From a virus (taxonomy: Duplodnaviria; Heunggongvirae; Uroviricota; Caudoviricetes), in IMG/VR virus record IMGVR_UViG_2690316343_000010: 7,751 nucleotides of DNA. The stretch is one strand, 5' to 3'. The notes beneath the pieces were generated by a model, which worked only from the letters and a program-made list of their open reading frames with translations, had not been told where the DNA came from and made no database searches. The position numbers were made by a program, and so were the translations under genes. Positions 1 to 7,614 of the stretch are shown piece by piece (position 1 is the first letter of the stretch; each line of letters begins with the position of its first letter).

Positions 1-787
<787 letters not shown>

Positions 788-883
788 ATATATATGTATT
801 TTCTCTGTTAAGCGTGAGCTACGTGAAAAATAATTTTTGGTGTGGGTATTAACTTTGCTTTATTCACGTAGAACACCGTTAAA

Positions 884-3064
884 TCATTCTTCCTCTGGAT
901 AGCTTGAACTTAAGAGCATATCCTGCGTGAACTGGTCATTAGCTGATTGATTGAAAGTAAAGAAAGATGGTTCATCTGGTCGAACGACAACTTGACCACC
1001 AAGTGAAACTTTCACTGGCTCCTGAATACGCTTACTCAAAGCACTAATTTCATCCCTCAGACCCTGAATATCTGCACTCGTTAATGCTGAATCTTGCTTA
1101 ATGTTGTTTAACTCTGGATGATTGAATCTTGCAATATTCATTGTGGCATTGTTAAACAATTCACCCATTGAACTAAAAATTCTACTCCATCCTTCGTTAA
1201 TCATATTCGGTTTATTAGGGTCACCAGAATACACGGGATTAAAGTCACTACCCACACCTACCCCAGACGGATGCATATTAGCGTTTTTGACTACTTCCTG
1301 ATTCATAAAATCCAGTGCTTTCTTCAATGCATATAAACCAAGAGTGACGCCTCTGATTTGTGGAATCATTGAAGCTAATGCTAACGCTGTTTCATAACCG
1401 TCATCAGCATAACCAATTGCAAGAGCACTACCTACACCACCAGCTACACCTTTCAGTTTTCCACCACCTTTACCAGTAGCTACCTGACCAGCCACCTGAT
1501 TAGCTCTTGTACCTAACGTTGTGATTGCTCTTGTCAGGTTCATAACCCCTGTAGTAGCACTGAATAGCGTCTTTGCAGATAACGCTATAGCAAGACCTTT
1601 GACGAAGTTGATAAAACCATCACCGACTTCATCAAGTAGTTTTCGTTTAGTGTCATCAAGGCTGTAATAGAACTTCTTAGTCTGTAAAATCCAGCCTTCA
1701 ATGGTGTTATTGAATACGCGAATATCATCTACACCAGCTTTAAGCATGTCGATAAGTCCACCGATAGCATCACCAGCGATAGAAGAACTCATCCCCATTT
1801 CACTAAGCAGGTTACTCAGGCTGGATAAGAAGCCGTTTAGCTCATCCTGTGAACCTGAGAAGATTTTCACCATCGTATCATCCCAATTGTTTGCTAACTT
1901 ACCTAAAGCTGTCTGAGTGCTCTTAGTGACTTCAGCCCAGCCACCCGCTTTATCAATCATCAAGCCCATCTGTTTAGCGACTTTAGGGAGAGTATCAGCG
2001 GAAAGTACCTTCCCGTTTTTCATGGCTGCATCAAGCTCTGTAGCAGTCATACCCAATGCTTCAGCGAATAGCTTAAATGCACCAGCCATACGGTCACCTA
2101 ACTGCCCACGTAATTCCTCAGCCTGAATCTTGCCCTTGCTCGCCATCTGCTCAAATGCTCTCAAAATGCCGTTTAGCTCATCGTTAGAAAGCCCCATTAA
2201 GCGACTCATAGCCGTTGCATTACCAAATAGCTCCTGTGTCTGTTCCTGTGACATAGAACCCTGAGCACCTGCTGCAAACTTAGCGTAGCTTGATAGCCCT
2301 TCAGAGATATTAAGACCTGTCTTGTCTGCTAAATTTCGAATAAATACCTCAGCTTCAGATGCTTTATCACCAAGTACAAACTTAGCGGCTCTCTGTGCGG
2401 AATCTCGTTTAAGACCTGCATTCATAATGGCCTTGTAAGCGTTAAGAGCACCCATCACAGAGTAAAATGCACCAGATAATTTAATCGCATTGCTTGCAAG
2501 ATTATTAAATGCGTCGCTTGTATTGTTAATGCTGGCGGTCTTTGTCTGTGACCTGAGTTTATTCAACGTTTCACGAAGAGATTGATTTAATTTTGCAAGT
2601 TCAGCGTTAAACTTTTCACTTCCAATATTACCAGCCTTACCGCTTAAGCTGTAATACTGTGCTTTAAACATTTTAGCCATCAGCGGATTAATATCACCAA
2701 GCTTAGACATATTCACGCTATGCGCTGCTGTGATTGCTCTGTTTCCGCTAATTCGTGGTTGCCTTGATTGTTTTGGAGGATTAACAGTGTCATTAAATCT
2801 GGTGGCAAACTGAAATGCTTTTGTGCTTCTTGCTCTCTGCTCAATCTTGTCAAAGGTCTTATTAAACTTCCTTTCAAGCTGCCCTAAAGAACTTGTCAGA
2901 TTGCTGTCAAGTTGCTTGGTATCGACCTTAAACGCTCTATTCAAATTGCGTTCAATTCTTTGTGCTGACTGCAAAGCTGCCTTTTCAACTCTTTGCAAGC
3001 CCTTAATAACGTTTTCACTGAAACTAAGTTCAACGATAAAACTATCAACTGTGAATTTGCTCAT
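884..3064 (-). CDS. Phage tail tape measure protein (726 aa)
   Basis: Coiled-coil-like N-terminus, then a segment (GNATAMSRLMGLSNDELNGILRAFEQMASKGKIQAEELRGQLGDRMAGAFKLFAEALGMTATELDAAMKNGKVLSADTLPKVAKQM) that matches my memory of the lambda-H-type tape measure domain, then Gly/Ala-rich hydrophobic segments typical of these proteins. ATG at 3064 with RBS AGAGGTGA upstream. Family call is from motif memory, not a search. Confidence 0.85.
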   Translation of the reverse strand: MSKFTVDSFIVELSFSENVIKGLQRVEKAALQSAQRIERNLNRAFKVDTKQLDSNLTSSLGQLERKFNKTFDKIEQRARSTKAFQFATRFNDTVNPPKQSRQPRISGNRAITAAHSVNMSKLGDINPLMAKMFKAQYYSLSGKAGNIGSEKFNAELAKLNQSLRETLNKLRSQTKTASINNTSDAFNNLASNAIKLSGAFYSVMGALNAYKAIMNAGLKRDSAQRAAKFVLGDKASEAEVFIRNLADKTGLNISEGLSSYAKFAAGAQGSMSQEQTQELFGNATAMSRLMGLSNDELNGILRAFEQMASKGKIQAEELRGQLGDRMAGAFKLFAEALGMTATELDAAMKNGKVLSADTLPKVAKQMGLMIDKAGGWAEVTKSTQTALGKLANNWDDTMVKIFSGSQDELNGFLSSLSNLLSEMGMSSSIAGDAIGGLIDMLKAGVDDIRVFNNTIEGWILQTKKFYYSLDDTKRKLLDEVGDGFINFVKGLAIALSAKTLFSATTGVMNLTRAITTLGTRANQVAGQVATGKGGGKLKGVAGGVGSALAIGYADDGYETALALASMIPQIRGVTLGLYALKKALDFMNQEVVKNANMHPSGVGVGSDFNPVYSGDPNKPNMINEGWSRIFSSMGELFNNATMNIARFNHPELNNIKQDSALTSADIQGLRDEISALSKRIQEPVKVSLGGQVVVRPDEPSFFTFNQSANDQFTQDMLLSSSYPEEE

Positions 3065-3096
3065 TCATGTTTCACCTCTTTAAGTGTTCATATACG

Positions 3097-3137
3097 AAAA
3101 AGGGAAAGACTACCGATATCACTCGATAATCTCTCCC
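3097..3137 (-). terminator. Weak intrinsic-terminator-like hairpin between the 68-aa gene and the tape measure gene
   Basis: On the minus strand, GGGAGAGA (3137..3130) pairs with TCTTTCCC (3109..3102) as an 8-bp stem with one G-U, followed by TTTTT (3101..3097). The 20-nt loop is long, so at most a partial attenuator. Confidence 0.25.
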
Positions 3138-3162
3138 GTAGATTTTCACCCAACCAATCTTG

Positions 3163-3369
3163 TTACCTAACCAGATAATAATTACCATCTTCACCAACAA
3201 TCTGACAATCACTTGGTAATTTATCAAGACACCACTTAGCTATTTTCCTGATTCTATTCTTTTGCTTAGAGGAGGTGAATGATTTGATTCGTTTTGGTTT
3301 GTTGGGTTGTTCTTTCAATCGTTCACTAATTGCTTTAATAAGCTCATAGCGTTCTGTTAAATCAATCAT
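3163..3369 (-). CDS. Hypothetical basic protein (68 aa)
   Basis: Complete ORF with an AAAAGGTGG RBS-like sequence upstream of ATG 3369. Lys/Arg-rich. No recognisable motif. Confidence 0.5.
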   Translation of the reverse strand: MIDLTERYELIKAISERLKEQPNKPKRIKSFTSSKQKNRIRKIAKWCLDKLPSDCQIVGEDGNYYLVR

Positions 3370-3393
3370 TCACCACCACCTTTTAATTATTAA

Positions 3394-4104
3394 TTAAATA
3401 GCCTTTGCATATTTGCTAGAAATCTTCGTAAGCTGCTCAATATCAGCCTGCATAGCAATCTTCTTAGCATCTTCATATTCTTTCACAAGCTCTTTCATAG
3501 CCTGAAGCTCTCTTGAGAGATACAACTTAACATTATCAAGTTGCTTGTTACGTGATGCCAAGATGTTCTGTCTAGCAATTTCAGCGAGTTCTTCATCGCT
3601 CTTATTAGTCATGTAAATAAACTGACCAGCACCTCTTGATGCCTTAACCATCTTCACAATTCGATGTCCAGCAGGAAGACTACTAATCACGGCTGCGACG
3701 TTTTCTTGAAAAGTACCAAAACCATCATTATCTTCGTATTGGTAATAGACAAATGGTTTCTGTGACAATTCATCCTGAATCTCAAATTCTGACGGCTCAA
3801 TAGCTGATTGCATCAAGGTAACTTTGCTGTAAGCGTCATCTAATCTAAGGCGCTGTTCTTTCAGCAGTTGGTAATATTTCTTTTCAAGCTCAAGTAATGC
3901 TTCACTCTTGCAAATATCAGGCATCTCTTGAGGCTCAGGAGACACAAAGATGGTTGTTTTTGGTGACATCTTTAGCGATTGCTCAAGCTCAATACGCTTG
4001 TCATGCTCTTTACGCTGAATAGTGATAGCTGGATGTTCAGTCTGTGGCGACCAGTCACTGAAGCTATCAATCACTTTGCCATTAATGTAAATATCATTTG
4101 TCAT
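3394..4104 (-). CDS. Hypothetical protein (236 aa from ATG 4104; ORF track extends to a GTG at 4152)
   Basis: ATG at 4104 is preceded by GAGGAAAAG with a 7-nt spacer. Coiled-coil-rich C-terminus. Function not recognised; sits just upstream of the tape measure. Confidence 0.6.
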   Translation of the reverse strand: MTNDIYINGKVIDSFSDWSPQTEHPAITIQRKEHDKRIELEQSLKMSPKTTIFVSPEPQEMPDICKSEALLELEKKYYQLLKEQRLRLDDAYSKVTLMQSAIEPSEFEIQDELSQKPFVYYQYEDNDGFGTFQENVAAVISSLPAGHRIVKMVKASRGAGQFIYMTNKSDEELAEIARQNILASRNKQLDNVKLYLSRELQAMKELVKEYEDAKKIAMQADIEQLTKISSKYAKAI

Positions 4105-4327
4105 TGCTTTTCCTCTTCTAAGCGGAAGTGTTTCAGTTTTTAAAAAGCACACCTGACAGCCTATCTAAACTTAGAAGAGACTTAAAAGGCGGTTTGCCAA
4201 GTATGCTTTTTAAAAGCTGAATAGCCCTAGATAATTTCTTATAAAGGGCCATTCATAAGGTGAAGAAATTAAAACATCTAAAGGATTCAAAAAGGATTCA
4301 AACGAATGAACAAGAGTACTTTTCGAG

Positions 4328-4383
4328 ATGACCTCTCAGACTAACCTGAAAGGTCATGTAGCGAAAAGCATTGCACCTTTCAG
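4328..4383 (-). promoter_or_regulatory. Mutually exclusive hairpin pair in the intergenic leader (candidate attenuator or riboregulatory element)
   Basis: Plus-strand segment 4346-4357 (ctgaaaggtcat) can pair either with 4328-4339 (atgacctctcag, 12-bp stem with one mismatch) or with 4375-4383 (acctttcag, 9 bp). It lies in a 350-bp non-coding gap between two minus-strand operons. Confidence 0.25.
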
Positions 4384-4502
4384 AATAACTATCATTGATG
4401 TAGAATGATTAATAGTTTAATTCAGGAAGAGTTGCTCTTCCCTATTACCATCATCTCATGCTTAAGGTTATTTGTCAACAGCTTTTTAACAGATTGGTAA
4501 CA

Positions 4503-4580
4503 TCAATTCTTATTTACCGTATTACCTACCCAGCAACCAACAAATAACCCTAAAGTCATCCAGAGAATAACGAGTGTCAT
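4503..4580 (-). CDS. 25-aa hydrophobic micro-protein (MTLVILWMTLGLFVGCWVGNTVNKN), predicted single transmembrane helix
   Basis: ATG 4580..4578 overlaps the TAA stop of the upstream 101-aa gene (TAATG) and is preceded by GAGGTG at a 5-nt spacing. Below the ORF-track length cutoff. I translated it codon by codon. Confidence 0.4.
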   Translation of the reverse strand: MTLVILWMTLGLFVGCWVGNTVNKN

Positions 4581-4885
4581 TACATCACCTCGCTGTAAGG
4601 GTTTAATTCATTCTGATAGGTCAAGAATACATTCAGCTTCAATAATTGCTCAGGGCTTAAATCAAGTCGATTGCACTCTTCAATGATAAAGCGCTTATTG
4701 TATGGGTCTGTTACTTCCAGCTTGTGAACATAGTCACCAAGTTTAATTTCGTTGATTATATGCTTGTCAATATACGTTGACGCTTCAAAACAATGCATGA
4801 AATAGATATTAAAGCCCGACCTGTTCAGGTCAATCAACCAATTCATGGTTTCTTGGTCAACCATAATTTGCATTGGGTAATTCAT
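4580..4885 (-). CDS. Hypothetical protein (101 aa)
   Basis: Complete ORF with AGGAAGGA upstream of ATG 4885. No recognisable domain. Confidence 0.6.
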   Translation of the reverse strand: MNYPMQIMVDQETMNWLIDLNRSGFNIYFMHCFEASTYIDKHIINEIKLGDYVHKLEVTDPYNKRFIIEECNRLDLSPEQLLKLNVFLTYQNELNPYSEVM

Positions 4886-5031
4886 TTTTAAAATCCTTCC
4901 TGTATCGCATTCTAAGACGTTTTAACCCCTTTTTTAGACCACTTAAGGCGATTCCCTAAGTTACCCTGATTAGGGGCTTAAAAACGTTTCTGGTGCGTCT
5001 GGTAAAGCCTGAGAGATATGTTTTGCTGTTT

Positions 5032-5247
5032 TTAGCTCAAGTCTGAGACTAATAGCCCCATCTGGTGACCGTAGTCTTTTAACCAGCTTTGCTTAACCGG
5101 AGTCTTCAGAGAATAGTTAGGGGCTGACAAGTGAAGATAGATATCATCTTTGCCGTGGATACTTCCCCATCCTTCGTATAACTCAAGCAAGTTTTCAAAA
5201 TAACGAAATGCTTTATTAGTCTGAAGTTGTACTGTGATAGTTTTCAT
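5032..5247 (-). CDS. Hypothetical protein (71 aa from ATG 5247)
   Basis: ATG 5247..5245 overlaps the TGA stop of the upstream gene (TGATG) and has a G-rich SD (GGGGTG). The ORF-track start at 5259 has no RBS. Confidence 0.55.
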   Translation of the reverse strand: MKTITVQLQTNKAFRYFENLLELYEGWGSIHGKDDIYLHLSAPNYSLKTPVKQSWLKDYGHQMGLLVSDLS

Positions 5248-5468
5248 CAAGCACCCCATTCAGAAATAAGCTTAATTCCCTGCTCAAGCTGTTCAGGGTC
5301 GTTATAGTCGAGTATTACCAGTGGCTTTAATTCGTGTTTAAGCTGGTGGATTTGAGAGGGTTTTAATCGTTTGTTTGCTTTGAGGGTCACATCTTCAAAT
5401 TCAGCATCTGCTAAATTCTGTCTGATTAGGTGGCGGCCAAGTGTGGAATATTGGAACCTATAACACAT
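5247..5468 (-). CDS. Hypothetical protein (73 aa)
   Basis: ATG 5468..5466 overlaps the TAA stop of the upstream gene (TAATG), indicating translational coupling. Confidence 0.55.
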   Translation of the reverse strand: MCYRFQYSTLGRHLIRQNLADAEFEDVTLKANKRLKPSQIHQLKHELKPLVILDYNDPEQLEQGIKLISEWGA

Positions 5469-5758
5469 TAAACCTCCAATCTATCCGCCAGTTGATGGAC
5501 CTTAGCGCTTAACACCTGAATCATTGAGCAACCTGCTACTGCGGACTGTGCTTTGAGTAGTTCCAGTTGGCCCGTTGTGATTCTGATGGCCTTAGAACCC
5601 TCTGCGACGCCCTTAACGTTATCGAAAGGGCTAAGGTTTACCGACTCTTTTAAAATCTCCCCAACAAGCGCTGTGTGCTTCATATCGGGATATTTGGCTT
5701 TGATTGCTGCCAGTCGTTCAAATGCCTCTGGCAAAAGGCGCGTAACTGTGTGAGTCAT
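5468..5758 (-). CDS. Putative ribbon-helix-helix DNA-binding regulator (96 aa from ATG 5758)
   Basis: ATG 5758 is preceded by AAGGAG with a 9-nt spacer. N-terminus THTVTRLLPEAFERLAAIKAKYPDMKHTALVGEILKES fits the beta-strand, helix, turn, helix pattern of Arc/MetJ/CopG-type ribbon-helix-helix proteins. It is the first gene after a divergent promoter pair. Fold assignment is from motif memory only. Confidence 0.55.
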   Translation of the reverse strand: MTHTVTRLLPEAFERLAAIKAKYPDMKHTALVGEILKESVNLSPFDNVKGVAEGSKAIRITTGQLELLKAQSAVAGCSMIQVLSAKVHQLADRLEV

Positions 5759-5794
5759 TGTAAAAATCTCCTTAAATCTCTTACTCATACTACA

Positions 5795-5823
5795 ATCTTA
5801 ACATCTATTTAACATATTGTCAG
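5795..5823 (-). promoter_or_regulatory. Sigma70-like promoter (leftward) for the regulator operon
   Basis: Minus strand: -35 CTGACA (5823..5818), 17-nt spacer, -10 TAAGAT (5800..5795), about 40 nt upstream of ATG 5758. Confidence 0.35.
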
Positions 5824-5845
5824 TACCTCATTTACATGATACTAT
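5817..5845 (+). promoter_or_regulatory. Sigma70-like promoter (rightward) with extended -10
   Basis: Plus strand: -35 TTGTCA (5817-5822), 17-nt spacer, TG-n-TACTAT (5837-5845). Its -35 overlaps the -35 of the leftward promoter, a back-to-back divergent arrangement. Confidence 0.4.
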
Positions 5846-5895
5846 GGTTGTAGGGGCTGATACAGGTGCTGTTTCCTTTCACAAAAGGAAAATTA

Positions 5896-6072
5896 ATGCA
5901 TGATTTTTTCACAGCAATTATTGAATCTCATCGTTTTAGCTCGTTGGGCTTTGCGGTATTTATTGTGCTATTGGTGTTTTGCGTTATGAATCGAGTCATT
6001 ACAAAAAAGACAAAGCTTACAATTCGACTTAAACTTCTTCGTGTTGAGATAGAGATTTCAGTAAATAAATAG
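5896..6072 (+). CDS. Small membrane protein (58 aa from ATG 5896): one hydrophobic helix followed by a basic C-terminal tail
   Basis: The only plus-strand ORF that lies in an intergenic gap. AAGGAAAA RBS 6 nt before ATG 5896, and the rightward promoter sits about 50 nt upstream. Sequence MHDFFTAIIESHRFSSLGFAVFIVLLVFCVMNRVITKKTKLTIRLKLLRVEIEISVNK. Convergent with the replication operon. Confidence 0.4.
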   Translation: MHDFFTAIIESHRFSSLGFAVFIVLLVFCVMNRVITKKTKLTIRLKLLRVEIEISVNK

Positions 6073-6159
6073 CTGGTGGCCTTACCGGCACTTTCCCTTG
6101 ATAATATTGGTGGCCCTCAGATTACCGGGGTCACCGTCTTTTAATCGTAGCTGGTGGAC
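6070..6159 (+). repeat. Cluster of Chi-like octamers: GCTGGTGG at 6072-6079 and 6150-6157, plus a partial copy attGGTGG at 6106-6113
   Basis: Exact matches to the E. coli-type Chi sequence 5'-GCTGGTGG-3', all in the same orientation on the plus strand. I found no other copy in the window on either strand. The three copies also form direct repeats (agcTGGTGGcc, attGGTGGccc, agcTGGTGGac). Confidence 0.5.
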
Positions 6160-6378
6160 TGAATCCCATAAATCGTAATGATACAGCACCGCAAACTTCA
6201 AAGCGTCAATCTTTAAATCTGTCACATCATCGACGAAATAATAATCCCTCCCTTCTTTCTTCGGTCGAATCCGGTAAACTTCCCCGTGAGTATCTTTCAT
6301 CAAGTAACCTTCACGAGAAATGCTGTAACGTCTGAGTAAATAGTCACGGTATTTTCTCTCGCCATTATAAGTTTTCAT
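6082..6378 (-). CDS. Hypothetical protein (98 aa), translationally coupled to the replication initiator
   Basis: ATG 6378..6376 overlaps the TAA stop of the upstream gene (TAATG) and has a GGAGGA SD. No recognisable domain. Confidence 0.6.
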   Translation of the reverse strand: MKTYNGERKYRDYLLRRYSISREGYLMKDTHGEVYRIRPKKEGRDYYFVDDVTDLKIDALKFAVLYHYDLWDSVHQLRLKDGDPGNLRATNIIKGKCR

Positions 6379-7331
6379 TAAAACATTCCTCCACCATAAA
6401 CACGTCTGACTTTAACTTTTTCTTTCTTTGGCTCGGTGTGAGTTTTCTTTTTTGGTGTAAAAGTAAAATCATCGTCACTATCATCAAAGTCATCGAGGTC
6501 ACTAACCTTGTTCTTTAGCTTCGCATTTCTGAATCTTTCTTTAATTTCTGCTTTACGCTGTTCACGTTTCAATTCCTTTTCAGGGTCTTCTTCATCATCA
6601 AGGTCAACATCCGGTAATTCATCATCAGTGGCGGGGCACTGTGTGTTTTTATGGTCACTACTAGCAATCACATCAGAGATTTTATCTTCCTTTTTAACGA
6701 CCTCTTTAGCAGCTTCACTATCAAGGTCATCTAAGTCAGATGTTTTAACAGTCTCTTTAATAGCCTCTTCAATACCAAGAGAATCACATTCATGTGAATC
6801 ACAGAGCGAAGCTCCCTTCTTAAAATATTCTTCTTCAAAGTCATCTTCTTTATTGTTATTAATAAGTTCTTTCTTGTTATTACTGTTATTATACGTGTCA
6901 AAGATTTTGACTGACTGAGTAAAAAATTTTGACTCAGTGGGTAAAGAATTTTGACTCAGTGGGTCATCTTTCTTGACTGACTGAGTAACTTTAGACTCCA
7001 GCTTTGCCTTTCTGGCTTCCTTAGCTGTAAGCTCTGTTAAAACCTCCGGTACTTCATCAAGTGAATAAACTTTAATAACACACTGATTGCTTGCAACGTT
7101 AGTTTTCTTGATTAAACCATGTGCCTCAAGTTGTTTCATACATGCAATCACGGATGTTCTTGTGATTCCAGCATACTGACCAAGATGAGCATATGAAGGG
7201 GTATAATATTGCCCCTTATCGTGATAAAACTTTTGTTCATTCAACATGACAGTGTAAATAATACGGTCGGCAGCTTTAACGCCATTAGTCATCTGATAAA
7301 TACGGTCATCAAACATGTGGAATTTTTCCAT
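6378..7331 (-). CDS. Lambda-O-like replication initiator / replisome organiser (317 aa from ATG 7331)
   Basis: ATG 7331 has an AAAGGA RBS; the ORF-track start at 7388 is a TTG lying inside a terminator hairpin. The N-terminal 100 aa (for example AHLGQYAGITRTSVIACMKQLEAHGLIKK) resembles the winged-helix DNA-binding domain of phage O-type initiators. Four phased iterons and an AT-rich tract lie inside the gene, encoding the inter-domain linker, as in lambda ori. The C-terminal half is low-complexity and rich in Asp, Glu and Lys. Confidence 0.7.
   Translation of the reverse strand: MEKFHMFDDRIYQMTNGVKAADRIIYTVMLNEQKFYHDKGQYYTPSYAHLGQYAGITRTSVIACMKQLEAHGLIKKTNVASNQCVIKVYSLDEVPEVLTELTAKEARKAKLESKVTQSVKKDDPLSQNSLPTESKFFTQSVKIFDTYNNSNNKKELINNNKEDDFEEEYFKKGASLCDSHECDSLGIEEAIKETVKTSDLDDLDSEAAKEVVKKEDKISDVIASSDHKNTQCPATDDELPDVDLDDEEDPEKELKREQRKAEIKERFRNAKLKNKVSDLDDFDDSDDDFTFTPKKKTHTEPKKEKVKVRRVYGGGMF
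6841..6896 (-). other. AT-rich tract flanking the iterons (candidate DNA-unwinding element)
   Basis: Strongly AT-rich stretch with three copies of TGTTATT, lying directly downstream of the iterons in the direction of gene transcription. This is the same order as in lambda ori (iterons, then AT-rich region). Confidence 0.4.
6905..6988 (-). repeat. Four 18-bp iterons with 22-bp phasing (putative initiator binding sites of an intragenic replication origin)
   Basis: R1 6905-6922 ttttgactgactgagtaa, R2 6927-6944 ttttgactcagtgggtaa, R3 6949-6966 ttttgactcagtgggtca, R4 6971-6988 tcttgactgactgagtaa. Two sequence types in A-B-B-A order; the type-A core ACTGAGT is the reverse complement of the type-B core ACTCAGT. 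Confidence 0.65.
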
Positions 7332-7521: not shown

Positions 7522-7614
7522 NNNNNNNNNNNNNNNNNNNNNNNNNNNNNNNNNNNNNNNNNNNNNNNNNNNNNNNNNNNNNNNNNNNNNNNNNNNNNNN
7601 NNNNNNNNNNNNNN
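7522..7614. other. Run of 93 N (scaffold or assembly gap)
   Basis: Literal n characters in the sequence. The ORF-track entries 7450..7659 and 7511..7702 span it and are artefacts. Confidence 0.95.

Follow-up and report, generated by a model that had tools for sequence, protein, structure and literature searches.

The 7,751-nucleotide stretch of DNA described here (IMG/VR record IMGVR_UViG_2690316343_000010; the whole of it is called the window below) is the central 7.7 kb of an integrative, presumably self-replicating island of approximately 11 kb and is not a phage. Given that the island encodes its own copies of two proteins from the tail of Felix O1-like phages (Ounavirinae), the tape measure protein (TMP) and the tube initiator (TI), it most likely hijacks these phages. 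We propose, with a probability of roughly 60%, that the island is a satellite that exploits virulent Felix O1-like phages and assembles chimeric tails, in a manner analogous to PLEs, the elements of Vibrio cholerae that resemble phage-inducible chromosomal islands. The genomic description of the island is secure: it has a compact architecture, host DNA on both flanks, tail genes homologous to those of a single group of phages, a TMP with conserved termini, genes under purifying selection, and a distribution that spans several chromosomal sites and genera. Induction, excision, and replication of the island, use of its proteins in tails, its packaging, and its interference with the phage are the steps that we infer.

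Flanks and architecture of the island

The window is 99.97% identical to Shigella sonnei contig DAJVYW010000105.1. On the side of the replication gene rep, this contig continues into a Dam methylase gene and a gene for a small resolvase-type recombinase, followed by ymdF and the rut operon, which places the S. sonnei copy at the wrbA/ymdF site. The same gene block is present in complete Escherichia coli genomes (loci L002 to L004), where it constitutes an island of approximately 11 kb. The TI-side boundary of the island is formed by a convergent gene for a large serine recombinase with Resolvase, Recombinase, and Zn-ribbon domains, and the other boundary by the Dam methylase gene, with or without the small recombinase gene. 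The full order is thus serine recombinase, TI, TMP, a terminator, a 68-amino-acid (aa) protein, a 236-aa protein, variable small genes, Rep, Dam methylase, and, in some copies, the small recombinase. At least three chromosomal sites are occupied, namely, tonB-yciI, wrbA-ymdF, and the interior of yecE, each in one complete genome. The island within yecE (L004) is bordered by 7-bp direct repeats, TGATTTT, that lie 11.16 kb apart, and for this type of island the predicted attP junction joins ...CCTTGATGATTTT to TATTAGACACG... Host genes (the rut operon and ymdF, wrbA, yecE, or tonB/yciI) are found within 1 to 2 kb of either island end. No head or tail cluster and no terminase, portal, or capsid gene was present in islands L002 to L004 or in the S. 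sonnei source contig.

These results bear on an earlier, sequence-only reading of positions 884 to 7331, in which the region was taken as a tailed phage with an atypical module order, with replication and accessory genes leading into a TMP gene and no recognizable terminase, portal, or capsid gene between them. The gene content was described correctly: no open reading frame (ORF) of the window matched a terminase, portal, or capsid family in Pfam or PHROG profile searches, and rep, which was said to be about 3 kb away, lies 3.3 kb upstream of the TMP start. What was overlooked was the TI gene downstream of TMP and its near-identity to Felix O1-like phages. The suggestion that the morphogenetic genes lie downstream or nearby is rejected because the flanks consist of host genes, the serine recombinase, and the Dam methylase; a conventional head-tail cluster was looked for in the flanking sequence and was not found. 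The framing as a phage genome also fails, given that the element lacks head genes and is flanked by host DNA. Of the alternatives offered at the time, the evidence supports the one of a reduced or satellite-like element with borrowed structural proteins.

In locus L003 (15761 to 16423), the Dam-family methylase of the island carries a C-terminal resolvase-type HTH_7 domain, an unusual fusion.

Tape measure protein

The TMP gene (3064 to 884, minus strand) is intact and encodes 726 aa. Its product matched TMP_3 (PF20155; 2e-21, 77 bits), TIGR02675 (1.7e-15, 57 bits), and phrog_4036 (4e-93), and the two bit scores exceed the curated cut-offs of 41 and 21.35 bits, respectively, in agreement with the previous assignment of this ORF as a tape measure gene. 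The best match in the PDB was gp17 of phage Bas63 (3.4e-74). The best phage relatives of the island TMP all came from Felixounavirus or close relatives, at 30 to 33% identity, and none of 50,697 phage records contained a TMP more than 60% identical to it. The Ounavirinae are virulent phages with genomes of 85 to 90 kb. Given that the window TMP is only 33% identical to Ounavirinae TMPs, it is not a recent phage fragment.

Similarity was distributed very unevenly along the protein. Compared with gp118 of phage garuso, identity was 33% overall, 78% over residues 1 to 40, and approximately 60% in the TMP_3 core; most of the C-terminal third was unrelated to the phage TMP, and the final 10 residues, LLSSSYPEEE, were identical to those of both garuso gp118 and Bas63 gp17. 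In the cryo-electron microscopy structure of Bas63 (PMC12609058), it is by its C-terminal 25 residues that the TMP is seen to dock on the hub and the PA protein. The unevenness of the similarity suggests that both ends of the phage TMP, including the hub-docking peptide, have been kept and that the body has been replaced. Island TMPs range from 679 to 726 aa, compared to 735 to 742 aa in the phages, and are thus 9 to 63 aa shorter. They are also mosaic, with N-terminal, middle, and C-terminal segments that reassort freely among the window and loci L009 to L018. The window TMP itself combines an N terminus of the L010 type, a middle of the L011/L015 type, and a C-terminal tail of the L009 type. 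The ratio of nonsynonymous to synonymous substitution rates (dN/dS) for TMP was 0.20.

Tube initiator and its decay in S. sonnei

The TI gene follows TMP. Intact orthologues in L002 to L004 encode 262 aa and matched the Pfam family Dit_like (PF21821; 7e-19) and, in the PDB, the tube initiator gp18 of Bas63 (9ndy_A; 8.7e-110). The tube-like domain is approximately 98% identical to garuso gp119 over approximately 180 residues, and the TI DNA of the window is 87 to 95% identical to phage DNA; the C-terminal extension of approximately 65 residues is the sole variable part. This near-identity points to recent exchange with virulent Felix O1-like phages.

The Felixounavirus tail module (gp17 and gp18 in Bas63, gp118 and gp119 in garuso) has the same adjacent order of TMP and TI and the same TMP_3 core. 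The features common to island and phage are the N-terminal 40 residues and the C-terminal LLSSSYPEEE of TMP and the tube-like domain of TI; the island TMP differs in its unrelated or mosaic body, and TI differs in its C-terminal extension. In Felixounavirus, both genes sit within a full head-tail cluster, with a tail assembly chaperone (TAC) pair before them and hub and wedge genes after them, whereas in the island they stand alone and are separated by a structured spacer of 155 bp. Judged from their sequences, TMP and TI appear to be the only structural genes of the island, and both appear to be built to fit the tail of a Felix O1-like myovirus.

In the window, the TI gene (728 to approximately 42, minus strand; a Dit-like "baseplate protein") is a pseudogene that was inactivated twice in the S. 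sonnei lineage. Its frame is shifted by a deletion of 74 bp at 579/580, which is apparent in comparisons with homologues from islands and from phages alike. Two independent S. sonnei assemblies share this deletion, and it is therefore real and not a sequencing error. The gene is also truncated by an insertion sequence (IS): the reading frame leaves the conserved ...SVNPNKR-Y end at the IS junction, where the 3' end is cut off. The remaining positions, 1 to 41, are the end of an IS21-family element (ISSso4-like) at the contig edge and match, at 95%, a sequence on S. sonnei pInv plasmids that lies approximately 200 bp away from the istA gene of ISSso4. Matches to plasmids were limited to this 41-bp IS end, and a plasmid origin of the window was rejected. 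The S. sonnei copy is decaying, may no longer be transmissible, and may have lost the serine recombinase end, which lies outside the window, behind the IS.

Replication module

The replication initiator Rep (7331 to 6378, minus strand) was called as 317 aa in the source contig and has an N-terminal winged helix and an acidic C-terminal half. Its matches in PHROG were to "replication initiation protein" (best, 1.6e-10) and "replication initiation O-like" (4e-7 to 9e-6) families. Matches to Pfam HTH and DnaD_N families were weak and below threshold, and no match was found in the PDB. Within rep lies a putative origin (6846 to 6988, minus strand) composed of four iterons, (TTAC)YCAsTsAGTCAA, at a spacing of 22 bp (6907 to 6988), followed by an AT-rich repeat (6846 to 6882). 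Three of the iterons were found as matches with three or fewer mismatches, against 0.10 expected by chance, and the fourth copy was read from the sequence.

In lambda, the origin is located inside gene O and consists of four iterons followed by an AT-rich tract. The island module resembles that of lambda in its predicted winged-helix N-terminal initiator and in the candidate iterons and AT-rich tract inside the initiator's own coding sequence. It differs in that the profile similarity between the two initiators is weak (E values of about 1e-7 to 1e-10), the C-terminal half of Rep is acidic, and there is no helicase loader like lambda P; a conserved 98-aa gene follows rep instead. We consider Rep a putative lambda-O-like initiator with a candidate intragenic origin.

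The 236- and 68-aa proteins upstream of TMP

Two island-specific genes precede TMP: one for a 236-aa protein (4104 to 3394, minus strand) and one for a 68-aa protein (3369 to 3163, minus strand). Some structure predictions were run on database homologues of the island proteins. The AlphaFold model of the 236-aa protein (pLDDT, 78) is a long antiparallel coiled-coil hairpin with a small alpha/beta tip domain, and the 68-aa protein is basic (pI 9.7), so that both descriptions in the sequence-only reading are borne out. The model of the 68-aa protein is weak (pLDDT, 70; pTM, 0.29). The 236-aa family has 23 representatives among 1.8 billion clustered proteins, and the 68-aa protein has approximately 200 homologues, whose named sources are Escherichia, Shigella, Citrobacter, and Kluyvera. 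Many NCBI/PGAP records label the 236-aa protein a "transposase" (e.g., WP_201524571.1), a name for which we found no support in Pfam, NCBIfam, PHROG, the PDB, or fold comparisons. The 68-aa protein had neither a family match nor a fold match.

In view of their position, the two proteins had been considered as divergent tail tube or chaperone proteins, possibly expressed through a programmed frameshift. None of the comparisons bore this out. BLASTP and profile comparisons with the phage chaperones gp116 and gp117 were negative, PDB profile searches returned no chaperone, including the PLE1 TAC (5IR0), at an E value of 1 or less, and the models of both proteins had no TAC or tube match in fold comparisons. 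The slippery heptamer that had been suggested for 3163 to 3400 is not there: no XXXYYYZ heptamer occurs inside either ORF, and frameshifting or readthrough from the 236-aa into the 68-aa frame was rejected. The two ORFs are in the same frame in the window, and their relative frame differs in L002 and L004.

A narrower version, in which the pair serves as the island's own TACs without a frameshift and is equivalent to gp116/gp117 and to the TAC of PLEs, would be compatible with a satellite. The two genes lie directly upstream of TMP in every island, both are under purifying selection, and in PLEs the TAC is likewise encoded next to the tmp gene. Against this stand the missing sequence, profile, and fold likeness to any TAC or tube protein, the missing slippery site, and the strong conserved terminator between the pair and TMP. 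Moreover, the 236-aa variants do not track the TMP variants; locus L015 has a TMP of the window type together with a 236-aa protein of only 27% identity. A capsid-size scaffold or a regulator would be equally plausible roles. The Sid protein of P4 is helical and similar in size to the 236-aa protein. We regard the chaperone role as rather doubtful.

Terminator, spacer elements, and a shared noncoding stretch

The 68-aa gene and the TMP ribosome-binding site are separated by an intrinsic terminator (3102 to 3137, minus strand; 15-bp stem and U run). All 14 islands compared have conserved it, in three sequence variants, each with a hairpin of 15 to 16 bp followed by a U run (dG, -23.6 to -24.4 kcal/mol; z, -5.5 to -7.2). 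Given that the window leaves no room for a promoter between this terminator and the TMP gene, TMP and TI are probably expressed via read-through or antitermination, and it is plausible that read-through is the control point for an infecting phage.

The spacer between TMP and TI (742 to 882, minus strand) contains two inverted repeats, with arms at 860 to 882 and 808 to 830 and at 776 to 791 and 742 to 757, and an island-specific 20-mer, TTCACGTAGCTCACGCTTAA, at 808 to 827. An island element of approximately 70 nucleotides combines the inverted repeat CTACGTGAA...TTCACGTAG with the 20-mer TT(T/C)ACGTAGCTCACGCTTAA. The 20-mer element occurs upstream of TI in every island examined, is absent from the phage loci, and is found upstream of TMP as well in seven islands (L009, L011, L013 to L015, L017, and L018). 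It may be a regulatory or RNA-processing element.

A noncoding stretch of 79 bp between the Dam and small recombinase genes (L003, 16484 to 16562) is 80% identical to an intergenic region of Ounavirinae and was matched in 220 Ounavirinae phage records; in phage Sf17 (L020, 2501 to 2578) its position is directly upstream of gp22. In the alignment, a TTGACA -35 box common to island and phage precedes it and two GGATATCC palindromes lie inside it, an arrangement like that of a promoter or 5' untranslated region, and it matched no Rfam family. This stretch may be a shared promoter/operator by which the island senses the phage. In a search of the non-tail half of the island for phage-like packaging signals, by distant DNA similarity to phages, the only matches were this stretch and a host flank shared with wrbA prophages.

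Distribution, conservation, and variants

Of 5,426 complete E. coli genomes, 426 (approximately 8%) contained TMP-related DNA, always on the chromosome and at up to five places per genome; in 58 of the genomes, the match covered at least 80% of the gene. Homologues of the 236- and 68-aa proteins occurred in E. coli, Shigella, Salmonella, E. albertii, E. marmotae, Citrobacter, and Kluyvera. The order 236-aa gene, 68-aa gene, TMP, TI, recombinase was kept in 9 of 10 IMG/VR loci (the tenth contig ends inside the TI gene) and in all 6 metagenome contigs that reach the recombinase end, and it was invariant even where the 236-aa protein was only 26% identical. Pairwise dN/dS values for TMP, the 236-aa and 68-aa proteins, the 106-aa and 98-aa proteins, and Rep were 0.13 to 0.45, with 0.13 for the 68-aa protein, indicating purifying selection. 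The recurring gene order, the wide distribution, and these ratios argue that the island is a maintained mobile element and not prophage debris.

An exact terminal overlap, as expected of free circular forms, was found in no metagenome contig searched. Contig SKEF01003551.1 (L024; 10,636 nucleotides) has a terminal overlap of 146 nucleotides with one mismatch, and its closure restores an intact rep. The closure joins the right end of the island to codon 232 of the recombinase at an ATTT microhomology, and the catalytic domain is missing. The contig could represent a deletion derivative, episomal or in tandem, or an artifact of assembly, and as a hint of a free island form it is suggestive only.

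Among distant variants, L017 carries HNH_3 endonuclease genes (1944 to 2468 and 4956 to 5243), one of them with an AP2 domain, a type common among phage homing endonucleases, and such variants have a different, unrecognized gene at the position of rep. The Shigella flexneri chromosome (L006, 9935 to 11544) contains a second TMP variant, which is frameshifted and shares 36 to 47% identity with the window TMP, its C-terminal part included. This variant is surrounded by IS elements and appears to be an island relative that has degraded.

Other features of the window

All credible genes of the window, including those within 884 to 7331, are on the minus strand, and they are transcribed in the order rep, 98-aa gene, 106-aa gene, the 73-, 75-, and 101-aa ORFs, a 475-bp spacer, the 236-aa gene, the 68-aa gene, and TMP. 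The conserved 98-aa protein (6082 to 6378; dN/dS, 0.21) is basic, and the start of its gene overlaps the rep stop codon (ATGA). The 106-aa protein (5468 to 5788; dN/dS, 0.25) is 93 to 94% identical across islands. The accessory ORFs that follow (4580 to 5468) encode 73 aa (5247 to 5468), 75 aa (5032 to 5259), and 101 aa (4580 to 4885) and are present, absent, or divergent depending on the island. None of these five small ORFs had a family match in profile searches.

The 475-bp spacer 5' of the 236-aa gene contains the best sigma-70-like promoter match of the window, TTGACA-17-TG-GATGAT (4450 to 4478, minus strand), which is a consensus match only; the total number of such matches in the window was not above the shuffle expectation. 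An ORF of 68 aa on the plus strand (5866 to 6072) encodes a hydrophobic segment, occupies the spacer between the 98- and 106-aa genes, and adjoins divergent promoter-like sites. Given that a stop codon interrupts its copies in L002 and L003, it probably does not represent a gene. At 7522 to 7614, a run of 93 N replaces approximately 3 nucleotides of the otherwise identical contig L007 and is an assembly, scaffold-gap, or masking artifact. The window had no PADLOC match to known defense systems and no RNA family in an Rfam scan.

Discussion

To our knowledge, satellites were thought until 2025-26 to steal the tails of their helper phages unchanged.

The PLEs of V. cholerae are islands with a large serine recombinase and their own initiator, RepA, that parasitize the lytic myovirus ICP1 (Mathur et al., Nature 2026, PMC12987554). 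Their genes include a TAC and a TMP of their own and, in some variants, a baseplate hub protein, and these proteins replace those of the phage in chimeric tails that are approximately 10 nm shorter; deletion of the PLE tmp gene cuts transduction by 96 to 99.9% (PMC12987554). PLE is the first family reported to build chimeric tails with its own TMP, and putative tmp genes in satellites are listed only for Vibrio PLE-like elements and some phage-inducible chromosomal islands of the capsid-forming type (cfPICIs) (PMC12987554, Extended Data Fig. 10 legend).

The island described here shares much of this organization. Both are small chromosomal islands with a large serine recombinase (seen in the complete islands, outside the window), their own initiator and origin, and no capsid, portal, or terminase genes. 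Both have their own TMP adjoining a baseplate-core protein, and this TMP is shorter than that of the helper and distantly similar to it (20% identity for PLE and 33% for the island). The helper of PLE and the presumed helper of the island are both virulent myoviruses. The differences are also clear. The host is Enterobacteriaceae and the presumed helper Ounavirinae, the island is approximately 11 kb, and it lacks a recognizable TAC. PLEs are approximately 18 kb. The second tail gene of the island is a Dit-like TI nearly identical to that of the phage, whereas PLE has a "BhuB" of 41% identity, and the putative lambda-O-like initiator with iterons inside its own gene is unlike the one described for PLE. 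We do not place the island in the PLE family, but by analogy it probably works like a PLE.

With phage-inducible chromosomal islands (PICIs), cfPICIs, and P4-like elements, the island has in common that these are small integrated E. coli islands with a replication module and helper-dependent virion parts. Pfam, PHROG, and NCBIfam searches of the island gave no match to the P4 alpha primase, Psu, Delta, or Sid, to the PICI small terminase or Ppi, to cfPICI capsid, portal, or protease, or to the PICI/P4-like markers tyrosine integrase, AlpA, and primase-helicase. PICI and P4-like elements have a tyrosine integrase and AlpA, unlike the island with its serine recombinase, and the helpers of PICIs, cfPICIs, and P4-like elements are temperate phages, whereas the tail genes of the island point to virulent ones.

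We envision that the island would be activated when a Felix O1-like phage infects the cell and would then excise, possibly with a directionality factor supplied by the phage, as in PLE. Theta-type replication could start from the intragenic origin of rep, and read-through of the terminator would lead to expression of TMP and TI. These two proteins would replace those of the phage in tails that are otherwise built by the phage, resulting in chimeric tails, which at about 1.5 Å per residue would be about 1.5 to 9 nm shorter than those of the phage, and the island would be packaged by an unspecified route and spread at the expense of the helper, whose yield would be reduced.

Several observations weigh against this proposal. 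The data analyzed contain no sequence evidence of induction, excision, packaging, or transduction, and no small terminase, pac/cos mimic, or capsid-size-redirection gene is recognizable in the island. A TAC homologue was not found in the island, unlike in PLE, the lambda-O-like character of the initiator is at odds with the description of the PLE initiator, and no homology to PLE proteins was detected among those in the PDB, which was the extent of that comparison. Metagenome contigs of about island length mostly resemble integrated copies for which the assembly broke at the island ends, and the sole self-closing contig, L024, lacks the recombinase catalytic domain and is a possible assembly artifact. 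A description of the island family was not found in open-access papers and bioRxiv and may exist elsewhere. Finally, TMP and TI could be purely assembly poisons.

This last point leads to the main rival, in which the island is a defense island whose decoy TMP and TI, with the docking interfaces of the phage retained and the bodies altered, enter the assembling tails of Felix O1-like phages and poison them; the bacterial population would be protected, the island itself would never be packaged, and its recombinase and Rep would serve ordinary mobility and maintenance only. Such a decoy fits most of the data. An arms race would be expected to leave conserved TMP termini around a divergent, mosaic body, profile searches identified no packaging function, and the S. 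sonnei copy has retained an intact TMP despite its broken TI. Interference with tail assembly is also a known strategy, as in Tai systems (PMC11364771) and as represented by Rta of PLE11. However, an element with an initiator and origin of its own would be expected to amplify after induction, as satellites typically do, and TI looks functional rather than poisonous, given that its tube domain is almost identical to that of the phage. In PLE, the closest precedent, the satellite TMP is a working structural part, and PADLOC returned no match. Both functions may also hold together. On balance we consider a pure decoy unlikely. Far less probable still is that the window derives from a decayed prophage, Felix O1-like or other, or from the module junction of a conventional phage with its head genes outside the window. 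The tail genes are of a phage type, IMG/VR classes related regions as proviral, and the S. sonnei copy bears marks of decay. However, the close host genes on both sides, the repeated occurrence of this compact 11-kb block of genes in several genera and at no fewer than three sites, and intact ORFs under purifying selection all speak against it, as do the virulence and the 85- to 90-kb genomes of the Ounavirinae and a TMP too divergent for a recent fragment.

We thus favor a satellite that builds chimeric tails. A broader claim, that the islands constitute a widespread and undescribed family of Enterobacteriaceae satellites that parasitize virulent Felix O1-like phages and that evolved the replacement of TMP and TI independently of PLE, is one that we put forward tentatively, at somewhat less than even odds. 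If true, these would be the first E. coli satellites known to depend on strictly lytic phages; the family itself is common in E. coli, Shigella, and Salmonella. Our results also correct the routine annotations of the 236-aa protein as a "transposase" and of the island as a "provirus". Strain K-12 and the BASEL phage Bas63 would provide a tractable model and a genetically easy system in which to study how a satellite TMP comes to be used in preference to that of its helper. Felix O1-type phages are used in Salmonella typing, biocontrol, and therapy, and the island would probably be a host factor that makes Ounavirinae phages, which are widely used in the biocontrol and therapy of Salmonella and E. 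coli, less effective. Substitution of tail proteins would then be a general strategy at which satellites have arrived convergently.

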